Assembly (NCBI GenBank): GCA_938002255.1
Contig: CALLAL010000012.1
Span: 41,456 to 105,455 of the forward strand
Length of the DNA stretch: 64,000 nucleotides
Direction: 5' to 3'
DNA from: an uncultured bacterium
GTDB taxonomy: Bacteria; Desulfobacterota; BSN033; UBA1163
This document shows, piece by piece, positions 40,631 through 47,111 of the stretch. The notes under the pieces are model-generated. The model did not search any database. It was given only the letters and a program-made list of their open reading frames with translations, and was not told the origin of the DNA. A program made the position numbers and the translations under genes. How positions within the stretch are numbered: position 1 is the stretch's first letter; each line of letters begins with the position of its first letter.

Positions 40631-42355
40631 ATGGCTCAGAAAAAGAGTTTTGGAGAATTCTTAGTGGACCTCGGGGTTATCACACCTGACCAATTAAAAA
40701 AGGCTTCCCAGGAACAGAGACAGGGAGGCGAGAGATTGGATCAAACTCTGGTCCGCAAAGGTTATGCTAAGGAAGAGGTCATTTATCAAAGTTTAGCCGA
40801 TTATTTTAATCTTCCTTACGTGGACCTTGACACCTATCTGATTGACGATAAGATCGTAAAACTTGTCCCTGACGATGTGGCAAGACGTCACACCTTAATT
40901 CCCCTTTTTAAAATTGGGGACACTTTAACGATTGCCATCGATAACCCCCTCAATATCATCGCTCTGGATGAAGTCCGAAACCGAACCAAGACCGATGTCG
41001 ACGTCGCCATCAGTACAGAGAAGAAGATCAAAAAAGCCATTGAACAATACTATGGAGTTGGAGCTTCGATGATCGAGAACACGCTCAGACAGATGACGGC
41101 GCAGACATCGCCTCCCTCACCAACAGAGACTACAGAATATCGGAAATCTTACGATCTCCAGAGCAGAGAGCCTCTCGGAGGTCCTCTGGAGGGGGCTCCA
41201 GCAGCTCGATTGCTTGATGTGGTCTTCATGCAGGCCATTCATGATCGGGCCAGCGACATCCATTTTGAGCCTGACGAACGATCCCTGAGGGTGCGGTTTC
41301 GAATTGATGGTTTTCTTTACGAAACATTCACCCTCCCCAAATCAGTACACCCTGCCTTGACCGCTCGAATTAAGATCCTGTCAGAACTGGATATTGCCGA
41401 AACGCGTTCCCCCCAGGACGGAAATTTCAATATCCGTATGGATCAAAGGGGGTTTGAAATGAGGGTCTCAACCTTCCCAACCATTTATGGCGAGAATGTG
41501 GTCCTTCGTATCCTGGACCAGACAAGCCCTCTTCTTACTCTTGAGGATCTCGGGTTTTCAGAAGAGATGTTAGCTCAATTCAAACAGCTGCTTCGAAAGA
41601 CGACGGGAATGATTCTGGTGACCGGGCCGACCGGAAGTGGCAAGACGACCACCCTTTACGGTTCTCTTAATCTGATCAATTCCGTCAACAAAAACATTAT
41701 TACCATTGAAGATCCGGTAGAGTACCGCCTCTCTTTAATCCGCCAGACCCAAATTAACCCAAAAGCCGGAATTACCTTTGCCACCGGGTTAAGGTCCATT
41801 CTTCGACAAGATCCTGATGTCATTATGGTCGGCGAAATCAGGGATTTAGAAACCGCACAGATTGCCATTCAGGCAGCTTTAACAGGCCATCTGGTGCTTA
41901 GCACCCTCCACACCAATGATGCTCCAGAGGCGGTGTCTCGTTTACTTGACATCGGGGTTGAGCCTTATCTCATTGCCCCTTCCGTGATTGGGGTGTTGGC
42001 TCAACGCTTGGTCCGTTCCATCTGTCCCCATTGTAAATCGGAGGCTCCTTCTGATGAAGCAGTATTGAGGGAAATGAAGGATTATCTGAAAACCTTGAAA
42101 GACCCTCCTCGTTTTGCTTACGGGAGGGGTTGCAAACAGTGCAAACAGTCAGGTTATCTGGGCCGCATAGGAATCTTTGAACTCCTTGTGGTGAATGAAA
42201 CGGTTAAACGACTCATCTCCGAAAAGGCTTCTTCCTATGCTATCCGTGAGGCTGCCCGTCAAACAGCAGGGCTTCTTTCCCTTCGTGAAGATGGACTGTT
42301 GAAAGTACTGAAAGGGATGACGACGCGGGAGGAAGTGGATCGGGTGGCGTACTAA
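40631..42355 (+). CDS. Type IV pilus assembly ATPase, MshE/PilB (GspE) family, with an MshEN-type N-domain
   Basis: N-terminal FGEFLVDLGVITPDQLKKASQEQ matches the MshEN c-di-GMP-binding motif; Walker A GPTGSGKTT; tetracysteine motif CPHC...CKQC. Confidence 0.9.
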   Translation: MAQKKSFGEFLVDLGVITPDQLKKASQEQRQGGERLDQTLVRKGYAKEEVIYQSLADYFNLPYVDLDTYLIDDKIVKLVPDDVARRHTLIPLFKIGDTLTIAIDNPLNIIALDEVRNRTKTDVDVAISTEKKIKKAIEQYYGVGASMIENTLRQMTAQTSPPSPTETTEYRKSYDLQSREPLGGPLEGAPAARLLDVVFMQAIHDRASDIHFEPDERSLRVRFRIDGFLYETFTLPKSVHPALTARIKILSELDIAETRSPQDGNFNIRMDQRGFEMRVSTFPTIYGENVVLRILDQTSPLLTLEDLGFSEEMLAQFKQLLRKTTGMILVTGPTGSGKTTTLYGSLNLINSVNKNIITIEDPVEYRLSLIRQTQINPKAGITFATGLRSILRQDPDVIMVGEIRDLETAQIAIQAALTGHLVLSTLHTNDAPEAVSRLLDIGVEPYLIAPSVIGVLAQRLVRSICPHCKSEAPSDEAVLREMKDYLKTLKDPPRFAYGRGCKQCKQSGYLGRIGIFELLVVNETVKRLISEKASSYAIREAARQTAGLLSLREDGLLKVLKGMTTREEVDRVAY

Positions 42356-43029
42356 CGGAAAAGATTAAACTTGATGATCCAGTAAATGGCAGCAACGCCA
42401 TCTTTCCAGTTGATCTTTTTTCCCTCAGAATAGTCCCGACCCCAGTAAGAGATTGGAACTTCATAAATTCGGCATCCCATCTTTGCTATCTTTGCGGTCA
42501 CTTCCGGTTCAAAGCCAAAGCGATTGCTCTCAATCTTCATGGCTTTGAGAACCTCGGAACGAAAAACTTTGTAGCCTGTTTCCATATCCGAAAGGTTCAG
42601 ATCTGTTAGCATGTTGGAAAGTGTGGTGATGATTTTATTTCCGACTGCATGCCAGAAGTAGAGGACCCGATGGGTGCCACCCTGAAAACGTGATCCGTAA
42701 ACTACATCTGCCACCCCATCCAGGATAGGTGCAATCAATTGAGGGTATTCTGAAGGACGGTATTCCAAGTCGGCATCCTGAATGATCGTAATCTCTCCAG
42801 TAATATGAGGGAGAGCGGTTCGGATAGCGGCCCCCTTACCCTGGTTTATCTCATGGAAAAGGAGTTTAAGCCCTTCGCCGTTTGTCCGGAGAAGGTCAGA
42901 GGTTCCATCCGTTGAGCAATCATCGACCACAATAATCTCTTTTTCAAAGGAAACCTCCTTGACCCGCCGGATCACCTCGAGGATGGTCTTTGACTCGTTA
43001 TAGACCGGAATAATAACGGTTAGCTTCAT
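42352..43029 (-). CDS. Family-2 glycosyltransferase, polyprenol-phosphate sugar synthase-like (Dpm1/GtrB/ArnC-type)
   Basis: KLTVIIPVYNE...VVDDCSTDGT...DADL GT2 motifs; start placed at the Met that forms an ATGA overlap with the upstream gene. Confidence 0.8.
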   Translation of the reverse strand: MKLTVIIPVYNESKTILEVIRRVKEVSFEKEIIVVDDCSTDGTSDLLRTNGEGLKLLFHEINQGKGAAIRTALPHITGEITIIQDADLEYRPSEYPQLIAPILDGVADVVYGSRFQGGTHRVLYFWHAVGNKIITTLSNMLTDLNLSDMETGYKVFRSEVLKAMKIESNRFGFEPEVTAKIAKMGCRIYEVPISYWGRDYSEGKKINWKDGVAAIYWIIKFNLFR

Positions 43030-43775
43030 CGCTTCTCTCCTATGGCGATTAAAGATTGTCCCATCCATCTTGGAGAAAAAGTTTCAAGGAGTCGGAACAG
43101 GAAAACGAACCGATTAAACAGCCCGATCTGATGCTTTGGGAGAAGTCGCCTTCTAAAGAGGGAACCATTGATGAACCACCCCAAGATCCCAAAAGGATTA
43201 AAATAGGTTAAATGGTACAACTGGAAACCACTTTGTTTCATCTTGGTTGCCATCTCCTTCTTGGTATATCGCCTGACATGCCCGAGATGCTGATCAAGCG
43301 TATTGTAAAGCCATTTCAATGCAGGAACCAACAGCACAAGTCTTCCTCCTTTCGAGAGCACCTGATAGAAATGATGAAGGACGATGAGATCGTCTTCAAT
43401 ATGTTCTAAAACATTAGAGCAGACGACTGTATCAAAGGTCCTATGGAAGAGGGAAAGAGGATTGGTTCGGATATCCCAGTGGAGGGTAGAAATAAAATTG
43501 GGATGACTTCCATATTTTTCTTCAACAACCTTTAAGTAATCCCCGTCGATATCCGAAGCCCATACCCTTCCGTAGCCAAGAAGGAATCCGGTCAGATTTC
43601 CAATCCCACATCCCACCTCCAAGATATCTCCTTGGATAAAGAATCGAATCTGGTCAAAAAGCCAGGCGTGGTAAGCCTCAGCGTGTTCAAGTAGCAGGAG
43701 CGTTAAGGTATTGGTCCTCTCTGTCTTTGTCTTCCCGTCTGGAAGAACCTTAGAGACGTTTAAAACTGAAGTCAT
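43026..43775 (-). CDS. Class I SAM-dependent methyltransferase
   Basis: Motif I ILEVGCGIGNL; start at the Met 3 nt after the YfhO stop. Confidence 0.7.
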   Translation of the reverse strand: MTSVLNVSKVLPDGKTKTERTNTLTLLLLEHAEAYHAWLFDQIRFFIQGDILEVGCGIGNLTGFLLGYGRVWASDIDGDYLKVVEEKYGSHPNFISTLHWDIRTNPLSLFHRTFDTVVCSNVLEHIEDDLIVLHHFYQVLSKGGRLVLLVPALKWLYNTLDQHLGHVRRYTKKEMATKMKQSGFQLYHLTYFNPFGILGWFINGSLFRRRLLPKHQIGLFNRFVFLFRLLETFSPRWMGQSLIAIGEKR

Positions 43776-46607: not shown

Positions 46608-46637
46608 CCCCTCCTATGCTTATTCAAATCCATGCCC

Positions 46638-47015
46638 TTACCATGTTGCAGTGGCTGCACTGATCGTCCCATAAGTTGCTGGGACATTGGGCGTAGGGGT
46701 GAGCGTAAAGGTATAGACATTTCCGCCTGCTGTCATCACAAAAGTTGTTGCTCCTGCTGCATAAGTCACTCCTTGAATGACTGCGCTGTTGACGATATCA
46801 CCCATTGTAAATGTACCTGTTGTTCCTTTGACTAAGCGATCTGCAAAGAGCATAGAGTTAGCACTTCTCAGACTACCCAGCACTCCTCTTGCGGTGGCAT
46901 CAGCCGCCTCCTGAGTTAAATCAATATATCTTGGAATCGCTACAGCCGCCAAAATTCCGATAATCACTATAATAATGATCAACTCAATTAACGTAAACCC
47001 TCTCTGACTTCTCAT
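46638..47015 (-). CDS. pilA: Type IV pilin, tandem paralogue
   Basis: MRSQRG|FTLIELIIIIVIIGILAAVAIP; about 80% nucleotide identity to the downstream pilin over the N-terminal region; the ORF could also start at 47036. Confidence 0.85.
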   Translation of the reverse strand: MRSQRGFTLIELIIIIVIIGILAAVAIPRYIDLTQEAADATARGVLGSLRSANSMLFADRLVKGTTGTFTMGDIVNSAVIQGVTYAAGATTFVMTAGGNVYTFTLTPTPNVPATYGTISAATATW

Positions 47016-47111
47016 CTCTTTCGCACCTCCGTTCAAGGTTGGTTAAAAATTGCCCTATTTTTACAAAAATGATTCCTCTCTGTCAAGTTTTTTATTCAAA
47101 ATTAAATTTGG

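Follow-up and report, generated by a model that had tools for sequence, protein, structure and literature searches.

A type IV pilin gene cluster with a YfhO-family protein and a putative pilin-glycosylating module in an uncultured Thermodesulfobacteriota bacterium

We analysed a stretch of 64,000 nucleotides (positions 41,456 to 105,455 of contig CALLAL010000012.1, assembly GCA_938002255.1) from an uncultured bacterium of the Thermodesulfobacteriota. The whole 64-kb stretch is referred to as the window; all coordinates refer to it, and window proteins are those which it encodes. It is part of a metagenomic contig (ENA ERZ6864144). Its minus strand carries five adjacent genes, which code for two type IV pilins, a polytopic protein of the YfhO family that is a putative glycosyltransferase of superfamily C (GT-C), a class I methyltransferase (MT) dependent on S-adenosylmethionine (SAM), and a family 2 glycosyltransferase (GT2). 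An earlier reading, made from the letters and their open reading frames (ORFs) and called here the sequence-only reading, had described the same five genes at these positions, and the Pfam assignments agree with it (Table 1). We propose, with a probability of roughly 0.6, that the five genes represent the major-pilin operon of a type IV pilus similar to the mannose-sensitive haemagglutinin (MSHA) pilus, and that this operon is equipped with its own pilin-glycosylating module.

Organization of the pilin operon

Table 1. Features of the pilin operon and of the convergent pilus cluster in the window.
Feature	Coordinates	Strand	Description
pilin1	46638..47015	-	125-aa prepilin, leader MRSQRG, mature 119 aa, no Cys, C-terminus ATATW
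pilin2	46215..46607	-	130-aa prepilin, leader MMKNRKG, mature 123 aa, C-terminus GTFATW
YfhO-family polytopic membrane protein, putative GT-C	43772..46180	-	GTG start, 802 aa, Pfam PF09586
Class I SAM-dependent methyltransferase (MT)	43026..43775	-	249 aa, no transmembrane segment, Pfam Methyltransf_11/23/12/25
GT2, polyprenyl-phosphate sugar synthase type	42352..43029	-	225 aa, no transmembrane segment, Pfam Glycos_transf_2
Sigma-70-like promoter candidate	47057..47086	-	TTGACA-18-AAAAAT, extended-minus-10 TG, upstream of pilin1
MSHA-like type IV pilus assembly cluster	29731..42355	+	convergent with the pilin operon; Pfam, NCBIfam

The start codon of pilin1 is most likely the ATG at 47015, which follows a GGAGG, while the TTG at 47036 merely lengthens the ORF. 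For the YfhO-family gene, the public annotation of the same contig has a start that is located 15 codons downstream and leads to a protein of 787 aa; homologues align from residue 1-3 of the 802-aa version. The MT gene had been described as beginning 3 nt past the YfhO stop codon. Instead, its ATG (43775..43773) overlaps the YfhO TGA (43774..43772) in the form of an ATGA. A second ATGA, where the MT stop codon overlaps the GT2 start codon, is present at 43029..43026 as had been claimed.

The spacers between the proximal genes are 30 nt (pilin1-pilin2) and 34 nt (pilin2-YfhO). Neither of them contains a terminator-like site, an attenuator between pilin2 and YfhO was likewise not found, and both spacers, including their flanking codons, do not fold better than shuffled sequence. 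Upstream of pilin1, a consensus scan returned the promoter candidate at 47086..47057 as the top site of the region; it has 10 of 12 consensus matches and is a pattern match alone. Because the spacers are short, the distal genes overlap by ATGA, no terminator-like site is found and a promoter-like site is located upstream, it is plausible that the five genes are co-transcribed. All five ORFs have many homologues and are thus not chance ORFs.

At the distal end of the operon, the stop codon of GT2 overlaps the stop codon of a convergently encoded MshE-like ATPase (plus strand) at 42352-42355. No terminator separates the two genes, and transcripts from the two operons would run into each other. 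Where related loci lack MT and GT2, the YfhO stop codon is in many cases found 6-75 nt from the mshE stop codon.

Clade-specific synteny of pilins and YfhO

Related loci were taken from three sets, namely 47 loci from species-representative genomes, an exhaustive homologue search, and a metagenome scan with a diverse profile. They were stratified by their identity to the window YfhO protein, and all upstream pilins were assessed under one test. Prepilins were called by a sequence pattern, supplemented by tblastn and Pfam hits (locus L065 and the frameshifted pilins of locus L057). The YfhO family comprises 46,609 cluster representatives at E <= 0.001. Close homologues number in the hundreds, with 52-86% sequence identity among the best 120.

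The sequence-only reading had suggested checking its proposal by the recurrence of pilin-adjacent YfhO homologues in related genomes, and such a recurrence is found. It depends on the identity to the window protein: pilins are encoded directly upstream of YfhO in all 49 assessable loci at 50% identity or above (with one to four pilin genes), in 7 of 9 loci at 30-50% identity, and in 10 of 56 loci below 30%. Upon clustering, the cluster that contains the window protein has 64 pilin-adjacent and 2 non-adjacent members, while 10 are not assessable. In a second, small cluster, 5 of 6 members are pilin-adjacent, and in all other clusters this applies to none of more than 40. In total, uncultured anaerobes provide about 70 related loci in which pilins and YfhO are paired. 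Every one of the 47 genome loci for which upstream DNA is available has pilin paralogues on the same strand immediately before YfhO, and a reverse look-up which started from pilin homologues returned the same arrangement. We also considered that the adjacency might be an artefact of the motif search, and rejected this because 46 of the 56 distant YfhO-family loci were found to be devoid of pilins under the same test. As the pairing is confined to certain clusters, it is specific for a clade and represents neither a general property of YfhO proteins nor a search artefact.

Past YfhO, convergent MshE-TPR-MshM-MshL genes occur in 37 of the 40 loci which have enough downstream DNA. Several other gene orders surround the pair at lower sequence identity. 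At 45%, the order is sigma-54 activator-pilin-pilin-YfhO-[GT2::MT]-minor pilins, where the bracket indicates a gene fusion. Two arrangements are found at 41%, which are PilC-pilins-YfhO and pilin-[YfhO::MT]-GT2, followed by pilin-YfhO at 37% and pilin-pilin-YfhO at 34%. MshE-PilC-x-pilin-YfhO-PMT_2 occurs at 30%, and pilin-YfhO-x-PMT-minor pilins at 28%. The pair thus outlasts the rearrangement of its neighbours, which argues for a function. It was found in metagenome-assembled genomes (MAGs) labelled as Thermodesulfobacteriota, Syntrophaceae, Syntrophorhabdus, Nitrospirae, Thermodesulfovibrionales and Proteobacteria, among others, the closest relatives of the window being MAGs from Thermodesulfobacteriota.

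A second GT-C gene (PMT_2 or PMT) is encoded near the pilin-YfhO pair in three loci (L051 3012-4616, L059 7408-9093, L060 9327-10922). In two of these it follows YfhO directly or closely, and there is no counterpart in the window. This additional enzyme might add a second sugar or might act on another pilin. In the 41% locus L057, the two pilin genes upstream of YfhO (at 2025-3077) look frameshifted or truncated, with N_methyl fragments of 63 aa. This could reflect an assembly error or a pseudogenisation of the pilins.

The YfhO-family protein

The 802-aa protein had been assigned to the YfhO family, and this assignment holds. Pfam model PF09586 matches in two stretches with 62.4 bits, which is above the gathering threshold of 28.5, and the same model is matched by all 15 close and all 40 diverse homologues that were analysed. 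According to hydropathy, a basic N-terminus is followed by the first transmembrane (TM) helix (TM1), a first loop of 54 residues, and more TM helices up to about residue 490. After these comes a hydrophilic domain spanning about 280 residues, and the protein ends with a last TM helix (772-790) and a tail of basic character. In YfhO from Bacillus subtilis, the TM helices number about 13, and a large extracytoplasmic segment separates the last two of them (PMC5836110). Judged by hydropathy, the window protein agrees with this architecture in its many TM helices and in the large hydrophilic segment ahead of the final one.

In GT-C enzymes, an acidic motif (DXD, EXD, DDX etc.) is expected in the first extracytoplasmic loop (PMC5836110). 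In the window protein, such an acidic residue is provided by D45, with hydropathy placing it in the first loop, 10 residues past TM1. The E43-R44-D45 triplet is invariant among close homologues, and in a set of 40 homologues with 23-72% sequence identity, D45 is conserved in at least 90% while W69 is invariant. A few YfhO homologues have weak matches to PMT_2, PTPS_related and DUF2079. Since YfhO is fused to an MT in one of the related loci (see below), the C-terminus of YfhO, and hence the MT, would be cytoplasmic, and consequently the large hydrophilic domain and loop 1 would reside in the periplasm. By analogy to characterised family members, we consider the window protein to be a putative GT-C glycosyltransferase which would transfer a sugar from undecaprenyl phosphate (Und-P).

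Methyltransferase and GT2

GT2 matches Pfam Glycos_transf_2 with 114 bits and carries a D85-A86-D87 motif that is visible in its sequence. Its best solved relatives in a search of PDB sequences are ArnC, DPMS from Pyrococcus (PfDPMS) and GtrB, which align over residues 2-204. In NCBIfam, the top models (AglJ, PpgS, Dol-P-hexose transferase, ArnC, PgfS) give scores below their cut-offs. The characterised proteins closest to GT2 are without exception polyprenyl-phosphate glycosyltransferases. Because it groups with ArnC, DPMS and GtrB, the former label of GT2 as a polyprenol-phosphate-sugar enzyme could be retained. GT2 is conserved at 73-85% identity across related loci. The MT has only generic similarity to class I enzymes (such as BioC, UbiG and CpaM in the PDB and NCBIfam searches).

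Local gene content was counted for the 40 loci with enough downstream DNA. Of these, 11 have both MT and GT2, 7 have only GT2, 2 have only MT and 20 have neither of them, so that MT is present in 13 loci. Whenever they are present, these genes are located between YfhO and the convergent mshE. The methyltransferase (METHYLTRANSFERASE) and GT2 are accessory, yet they are part of the module. YfhO is the constant partner of the pilins, while GT2 and MT are optional add-ons. That MT and GT2 lie inside the pilin operon, as stated in the sequence-only reading, is thus correct for the window, but they are not a fixed part of such operons.

Two gene fusions tie the three enzymes to each other. In L055 (6665-8065), a GT2::MT fusion of 466 aa shows 48% and 35% sequence identity to the GT2 and the MT of the window, respectively. 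In L142 (962-3994), a YfhO::MT fusion of 1010 aa lies between a pilin gene upstream and a GT2 gene downstream. As the YfhO and MT genes overlap by ATGA in the window, one frameshift could lead to a fusion of the YfhO::MT type.

The pilins and candidate acceptor sites

Both pilins match Pfam N_methyl (36.8 bits for pilin1 and 36.1 bits for pilin2, cut-off 21.2) and the NCBIfam model for the prepilin-type domain, TIGR02532. They start with a class III signal peptide, consisting of a basic 5-6-residue leader with G as last residue, followed by FTLIEL. Their N-termini had been reported to be nearly identical and, indeed, the first 24 residues of the mature proteins are the same, with 67% identity in the overall alignment. 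Ser and Thr make up 27-29% of the globular part, and both pilins are completely devoid of Cys. There are more than 4,800 homologues of pilin1, some of which are labelled MshA by the Joint Genome Institute.

The AlphaFold model of pilin1 has a predicted local distance difference test (pLDDT) score of 87. It consists of a helix (residues 9-63) and four strands (84-87, 91-96, 99-106, 117-120), which corresponds to the lollipop fold of pilins with a long alpha1 helix on a 4-stranded antiparallel sheet. Foldseek found no significant counterpart of this model in the PDB, for which its small head domain and its long N-terminal helix are probably responsible.

In the sequence-only reading, a Thr/Pro/Ser-rich C-terminal tail had been put forward as the site of O-glycosylation. 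The composition is as described, Ser/Thr accounting for 9-10 and Pro for 3-4 of the last 25 residues, but a free and disordered acceptor tail is at variance with the model. What had been taken for a tail comprises strands beta3 and beta4, the Pro/Thr loop (P-T-P-N-V-P-A-T-Y-G) that joins them, and a 5-residue end (A-T-A-T-W). It is thus a beta-hairpin with a P-T-T-x-G loop, which leaves about 5 free residues that end in Trp. An example of a window pilin peptide is TPTPNVPATYGTISAATATW.

Conservation was analysed for 74 distinct YfhO-adjacent pilins which end in Trp and originate from 47 loci. The conserved P-T-T loop, which the confident model places between beta3 and beta4, has an invariant P106, while T107 and T108 are conserved in 81-86%. 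The penultimate residue is Thr in 93%. Most members of this pilin family (61 of 74) are free of Cys, and the window pilins do not have the disulfide-bonded D-region that is typical for type IVa pilins. In the close set, the C-terminal Trp is found in 75 of 75 YfhO-adjacent pilins.

The Trp codons which are the last before the stop codons in the window are located at 46638-46640 and 46215-46217. A terminal Trp occurs in every pilin that is encoded directly upstream of a YfhO homologue with at least about 28% identity (L004-L050, L058, L072, L075, L077, L080, L082). In a distant pilin-linked cluster (L091, L093-L095, L109), the pilins have classic Cys...Cys-Pro/Gln ends instead of the Trp. The terminal Trp may serve the enzyme as a recognition tag, or may substitute for the disulfide loop in packing.

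Comparison with known glycosylation systems

The closest precedent for the gene arrangement is found in Pseudomonas aeruginosa. TfpW, a GT-C enzyme, is encoded right after pilA and glycosylates the pilin of group IV strains (Pa5196/PA7), transferring a polyprenyl-phosphate-linked sugar to pilin Ser/Thr residues in the periplasm; its acidic motif in loop 1 is essential (10.1101/2020.04.19.049825). The window shares with pilA-tfpW a gene for a polytopic, putatively GT-C-type enzyme directly downstream of the major pilin and a candidate acidic motif in the predicted periplasmic loop 1. The proposed logic matches that of TfpW, as the sequence-only reading had pointed out. The same reading had called the YfhO-type enzyme unrelated to those of Pseudomonas. 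This is not tenable for TfpW, as both proteins are described as GT-C enzymes at the superfamily level (PMC5836110; 10.1101/2020.04.19.049825). It is correct for PilO/TfpO; none of the five proteins has a Wzy_C/O-antigen-ligase domain in Pfam.

There are also several differences to TfpW, which has 646 aa and 11 TM segments, carries a C-terminal periplasmic TPR domain and has been likened to the Emb arabinosyltransferases (10.1101/2020.04.19.049825). When the two are compared by description, the window protein is an 802-aa member of Pfam YfhO with a beta-rich hydrophilic domain and a final TM helix, and it lacks a TPR match. The DprE1/E2 donor pathway for D-arabinofuranose (D-Araf) is absent, while a DPMS/ArnC-like GT2 and an MT are present instead. 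In addition, the host pilus is MSHA-like and its pilins are devoid of a disulfide loop.

The same two enzyme families as in the window cooperate in streptococci. There, PgtC2 and PgfM1 of the YfhO family work with GtrB and PgfS in the O-glycosylation of extracytoplasmic proteins at Ser/Thr-rich regions (10.1101/2024.05.05.592596), attaching single sugars and often modifying C-terminal segments (10.1101/2024.05.05.592596; PMC5856776). These systems operate in monoderm Firmicutes on many membrane and wall substrates with long disordered regions, and they involve neither pilins nor an MT. In contrast, the loci described here are from diderm-type lineages and have a single putative substrate gene, the candidate acceptor being a short segment (loop or tail) of a folded domain. 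Only the broad families are shared, since similarity does not extend to the equivalog level: the YfhO protein scores 19.6 bits against PgfM2 (cut-off 1500), and GT2 scores 61.5 bits against PgfS (cut-off 500). Given these scores below the cut-offs and the absence of a TPR domain, the window system belongs neither to the TfpW nor to the streptococcal systems.

A GT2 and a YfhO-type GT-C that are encoded together and use a lipid-linked monosaccharide as donor are also known from CsbB/YfhO of B. subtilis and from GtlA/GtlB or Lmo1079 of Listeria. In these three-component systems, the flippase GtcA is encoded elsewhere (PMC5836110, PMC7389260). The acceptor is teichoic acid, which is not expected in the organisms considered here, and there is no link to pilins and no MT. 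TfpO/PilO and PglL share with our proposal the periplasmic O-glycosylation of pilins, and tfpO is also located directly downstream of pilA; TfpO modifies the C-terminal pilin residue (10.1101/2020.04.19.049825). They differ in being Wzy_C/O-antigen-ligase-like enzymes which use oligosaccharides linked to undecaprenyl diphosphate (Und-PP).

A large bacterial protein family without assigned function, component 27 of Durairaj et al. 2023, is annotated as YfhO and predicted to be GT-C-like while being distinct from reference YfhO. Its representative is UniProt A0A7X7MB17 and its median length is 665 aa (PMC10584680), which, set side by side by description only, is shorter than the about 800 aa of the pilin-linked clade. 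In the literature searched, in which most subscription journals are missing, we found no link between YfhO and pilins and no report of pilin glycosylation by such an arrangement for MSHA, for Desulfobacterota or for Thermus PilA4. Functional studies of YfhO in bacteria with an outer membrane were also not found in this literature.

Proposed function and alternative explanations

By analogy to these systems, the best explanation for the operon is a periplasmic O-glycosylation of Thr-rich, Cys-free pilins from a lipid-linked and possibly methylated monosaccharide. GT2, as a soluble or peripheral enzyme at the cytoplasmic face of the inner membrane, would load undecaprenyl phosphate with one sugar taken from a nucleotide sugar. 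The MT would modify the lipid-linked sugar or a precursor thereof, and a flippase would carry the lipid-linked product across the membrane. In the periplasm, the YfhO-type GT-C would then transfer the monosaccharide to Ser/Thr residues in the globular part of the membrane-anchored pilin prior to pilus assembly. For this, it would use Asp45 of its first periplasmic loop and its large periplasmic domain. The likeliest acceptor would be the exposed and conserved Pro/Thr loop (T-P-T-P-x-x-P-T-T-Y-G) or the short tail which precedes the invariant Trp. A pilin-dedicated pathway based on lipid-linked sugars had already been proposed in the sequence-only reading, and synteny, gene fusions and the grouping of GT2 speak strongly for it. 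Gene order, family assignments, clade-specific synteny and gene fusions are observed. That the pilins are the acceptor and are glycosylated, with which sugar, in methylated form or not, and at which site, we infer, just as the enzyme activities, the lipid carrier and the flippase, from the established behaviour of the enzyme families (CsbB/YfhO, GtlA/GtlB, GtrB/PgtC2, PgfS/PgfM1, pilA-tfpW).

Several observations weigh against this proposal. All loci of the clade are metagenomic or come from MAGs. The best-scoring stretch of the YfhO Pfam match covers only the C-terminal 90 or so residues (687-777). The AlphaFold model of the YfhO protein, based on an alignment of 15 sequences, has a pLDDT of 47, which is too poor for recognition of a GT-C fold. 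Profile searches of PDB sequences with YfhO-like alignments gave no meaningful match, and when a YfhO-like profile was compared by hhalign to three neighbouring PMT_2 proteins, the probability was 10.6%, with the TM1/loop-1 regions being aligned. None of the NCBIfam matches of GT2 attains the equivalog cut-off and, unlike GtrB, ArnC and PfDPMS, GT2 has no TM anchor according to hydropathy, its C-terminus being a short Trp-rich stretch. TM-less polyprenyl-phosphate enzymes exist, e.g. those of the DPM1 type, so that the missing anchor does not exclude activity. Between the fused MT domain of L142 and the window MT, similarity is weak (26% identity over 93 residues). Half of the related loci (20 of 40) have no GT2 or MT nearby. 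The three-gene pathway is thus not obligatory, and where GT2 and MT are absent, the donor must be supplied from other parts of the genome. Genes for a GtrA-like or other flippase and for nucleotide-sugar synthesis are absent from the window ORFs that were scanned. Finally, about 28 of 47 loci have also kept the gene for an unrelated protein, XdhC, on the upstream side of the pilins, and the synteny is therefore partly due to shared ancestry.

The YfhO enzyme, GT2 and MT might glycosylate another envelope component with which the pilins are merely co-expressed, such as a polysaccharide, lipopolysaccharide (LPS) or lipid, minor pilins or a part of the pilus machine. The characterised YfhO proteins from Bacillus and Listeria modify teichoic acids rather than proteins (PMC5836110), most of the YfhO-family loci below 30% identity (46 of 56) are not located beside pilins, and the second GT-C (PMT_2) of some loci could be the pilin-specific enzyme. 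However, YfhO is found right after a pilin and after no other pilus gene in all 49 close loci even where the neighbours have changed, the neighbourhood in the window contains no polysaccharide or LPS genes, and protein O-glycosyltransferases do exist in the YfhO family (10.1101/2024.05.05.592596). We regard a non-pilin acceptor as unlikely, although it is the alternative to be taken most seriously. Less likely than this is a methyltransferase which acts on the lipid carrier or on the pilin (for instance on the cytoplasmic side at its N-terminus) rather than on the sugar, an explanation that overlaps with the other alternatives. It would be in line with an MT that is cytoplasmic, tethered to the membrane in the YfhO::MT fusion, encoded beside pilins and only generically similar to known class I enzymes, and also with the absence of a prepilin peptidase/N-methyltransferase gene among the window ORFs scanned. 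The fusion of MT to GT2 in L055 argues for the sugar, the methylation of lipid-linked sugars having a precedent in AglP from Haloferax. Moreover, these pilins are generally N-methylated by PilD-type enzymes, whereas the MT is absent from most loci.

It is improbable, in our view, that the YfhO-like protein is a non-catalytic accessory or assembly factor for the pilin, comparable to TfpY and TfpZ, with GT2 and MT serving an unrelated pathway that has been inserted. Non-glycosylating accessory genes downstream of pilA are known in P. aeruginosa (PMC11841053), and such a role would be compatible with the lack of GT2 and MT in 20 of 40 loci and with the structure model and the hhalign comparison, which do not confirm a GT-C fold or catalysis. 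Yet the acidic residue of the first loop, together with many other loop residues, is conserved down to 23% identity, and all 40 homologues pass the Pfam YfhO threshold. Also, GT2 and MT are inserted only right after YfhO, and elsewhere they are fused to one another or to YfhO. Slightly more improbable still is a gene order that has simply been inherited among related genomes, the three enzymes having no functional link to the pilins. The upstream XdhC without evident role in the pilus points to some phylogenetic inertia. The pair is nevertheless kept in loci where XdhC and MshE have been replaced (L047, L050, L054, L055, L057, L059, L060), it persists down to 28% YfhO identity, and it occurs in MAGs labelled as Nitrospirae, Thermodesulfovibrionales and Proteobacteria in addition to those labelled as Thermodesulfobacteriota. 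We favour a module that glycosylates the pilins with which it is encoded.

This proposal can be extended to a more far-reaching one, which we hold to be unlikely. The pilin-linked proteins would then represent a large, unrecognised clade of YfhO-like GT-C enzymes which are dedicated pilin O-glycosyltransferases and have co-evolved with Cys-free, Thr-rich pilins that end in Trp. In such a clade, the Trp may be a tag by which the enzyme recognises or positions its substrate, and the clade may overlap with the YfhO-like family that was reported as the largest functionally dark one of the AlphaFold database. The methylated monosaccharide may replace the disulfide loop and may stabilise or shield the pili of strictly anaerobic syntrophs.

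Significance

To our knowledge, two types of enzymes are established for the glycosylation of pilins, which are the PglL/TfpO oligosaccharyltransferases and TfpW. We also know of functional work on the YfhO family only for Gram-positive teichoic acids and for streptococcal surface proteins. If our proposal is true, the YfhO-type clade provides a third route to pilin glycosylation that is widespread in uncultured anaerobes, and a part of a very large, uncharacterised family of membrane proteins obtains a function which can be tested. The logic of the module has clear precedents, and the comparative signal is unusually clean. The lineages concerned include syntrophs, for which pili have been discussed in the context of attachment and interspecies interactions. 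Glycans on the pilus surface would alter how pili pack and how susceptible they are to phages, as well as their charge and antigenicity. For a heterologous reconstitution, the GT2::MT and YfhO::MT fusions offer compact constructs.

Pilus assembly cluster and wider neighbourhood

The pilus cluster of the plus strand codes for a PilC-like T2SSF protein, two minor pilins with N_methyl domain, a PilM/PilN fusion, an MshL-like secretin, an MshM-like AAA ATPase (AAA_22), a TPR protein and an MshE-like ATPase (40631-42355) with a domain for binding of cyclic di-GMP (c-di-GMP), MshEN (77.7 bits). For the secretin, MshL is the best model (216 bits, cut-off 250.2), while the MshE-like ATPase also scores as PilB or GspE, below the cut-offs. 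Gene content and gene order are thus similar to those of MSHA clusters, with scores that stay below the equivalog thresholds. The window pilins presumably feed this convergent cluster. Four of its ORFs have no significant Pfam match (31479-31964, 32574-33686, 35462-36028, 36039-36518), one of them having a sub-threshold match to CdsD_C. From their position, these may be counterparts of minor pilins or of MshJ/MshK-like proteins.

Three regulators are encoded just before the pilus cluster (23633-29636). These are a 1249-aa PAS/GAF hybrid histidine kinase, a second hybrid kinase, in which an N-terminal receiver is combined with a weak GGDEF domain that is probably degenerate, and a single-domain response regulator. 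The same pair of histidine kinase and response regulator is found ahead of PilC-pilin-YfhO in L047, L050 and L054. Together with the MshEN domain, the three regulators suggest that the pilus is under two-component and c-di-GMP control.

Beyond the promoter candidate, the minus strand (47120-51086) carries cofactor-maturation genes (XdhC, YqeC, MobA/NTP_transf_3-like) which have no evident role in the pilus; two ORFs beside the pilin operon (48218-48796 and 49645-50496) have no Pfam match. An enzyme of the xanthine-dehydrogenase family, with subunits for FAD, 2Fe-2S and molybdenum cofactor, is encoded 25 kb away on the plus strand (19711-23384). As the synteny of XdhC is conserved although it seems to be unrelated, caution is required when gene order is interpreted in this lineage. 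Further beyond the operon, a 501-aa multihaem c-type cytochrome and a molybdopterin oxidoreductase are encoded (51822-53327 and 54985-57153), and the same flank contains a ferritin/rubrerythrin-like protein, a Sod_Fe_C protein and a universal stress protein (Usp). This set of genes fits an anaerobic respiratory lifestyle.

The opposite end of the window (810-19691) codes for methylmalonyl-CoA mutase subunits, a fused 3-hydroxyacyl-CoA dehydrogenase/enoyl-CoA hydratase, two transporters of the TRAP/TAXI type, two AMP-forming ligases, and hydantoinase A/B-like subunits of the acetone/acetophenone carboxylase type. This region is a substrate-degradation island which is unrelated to the pilin operon.

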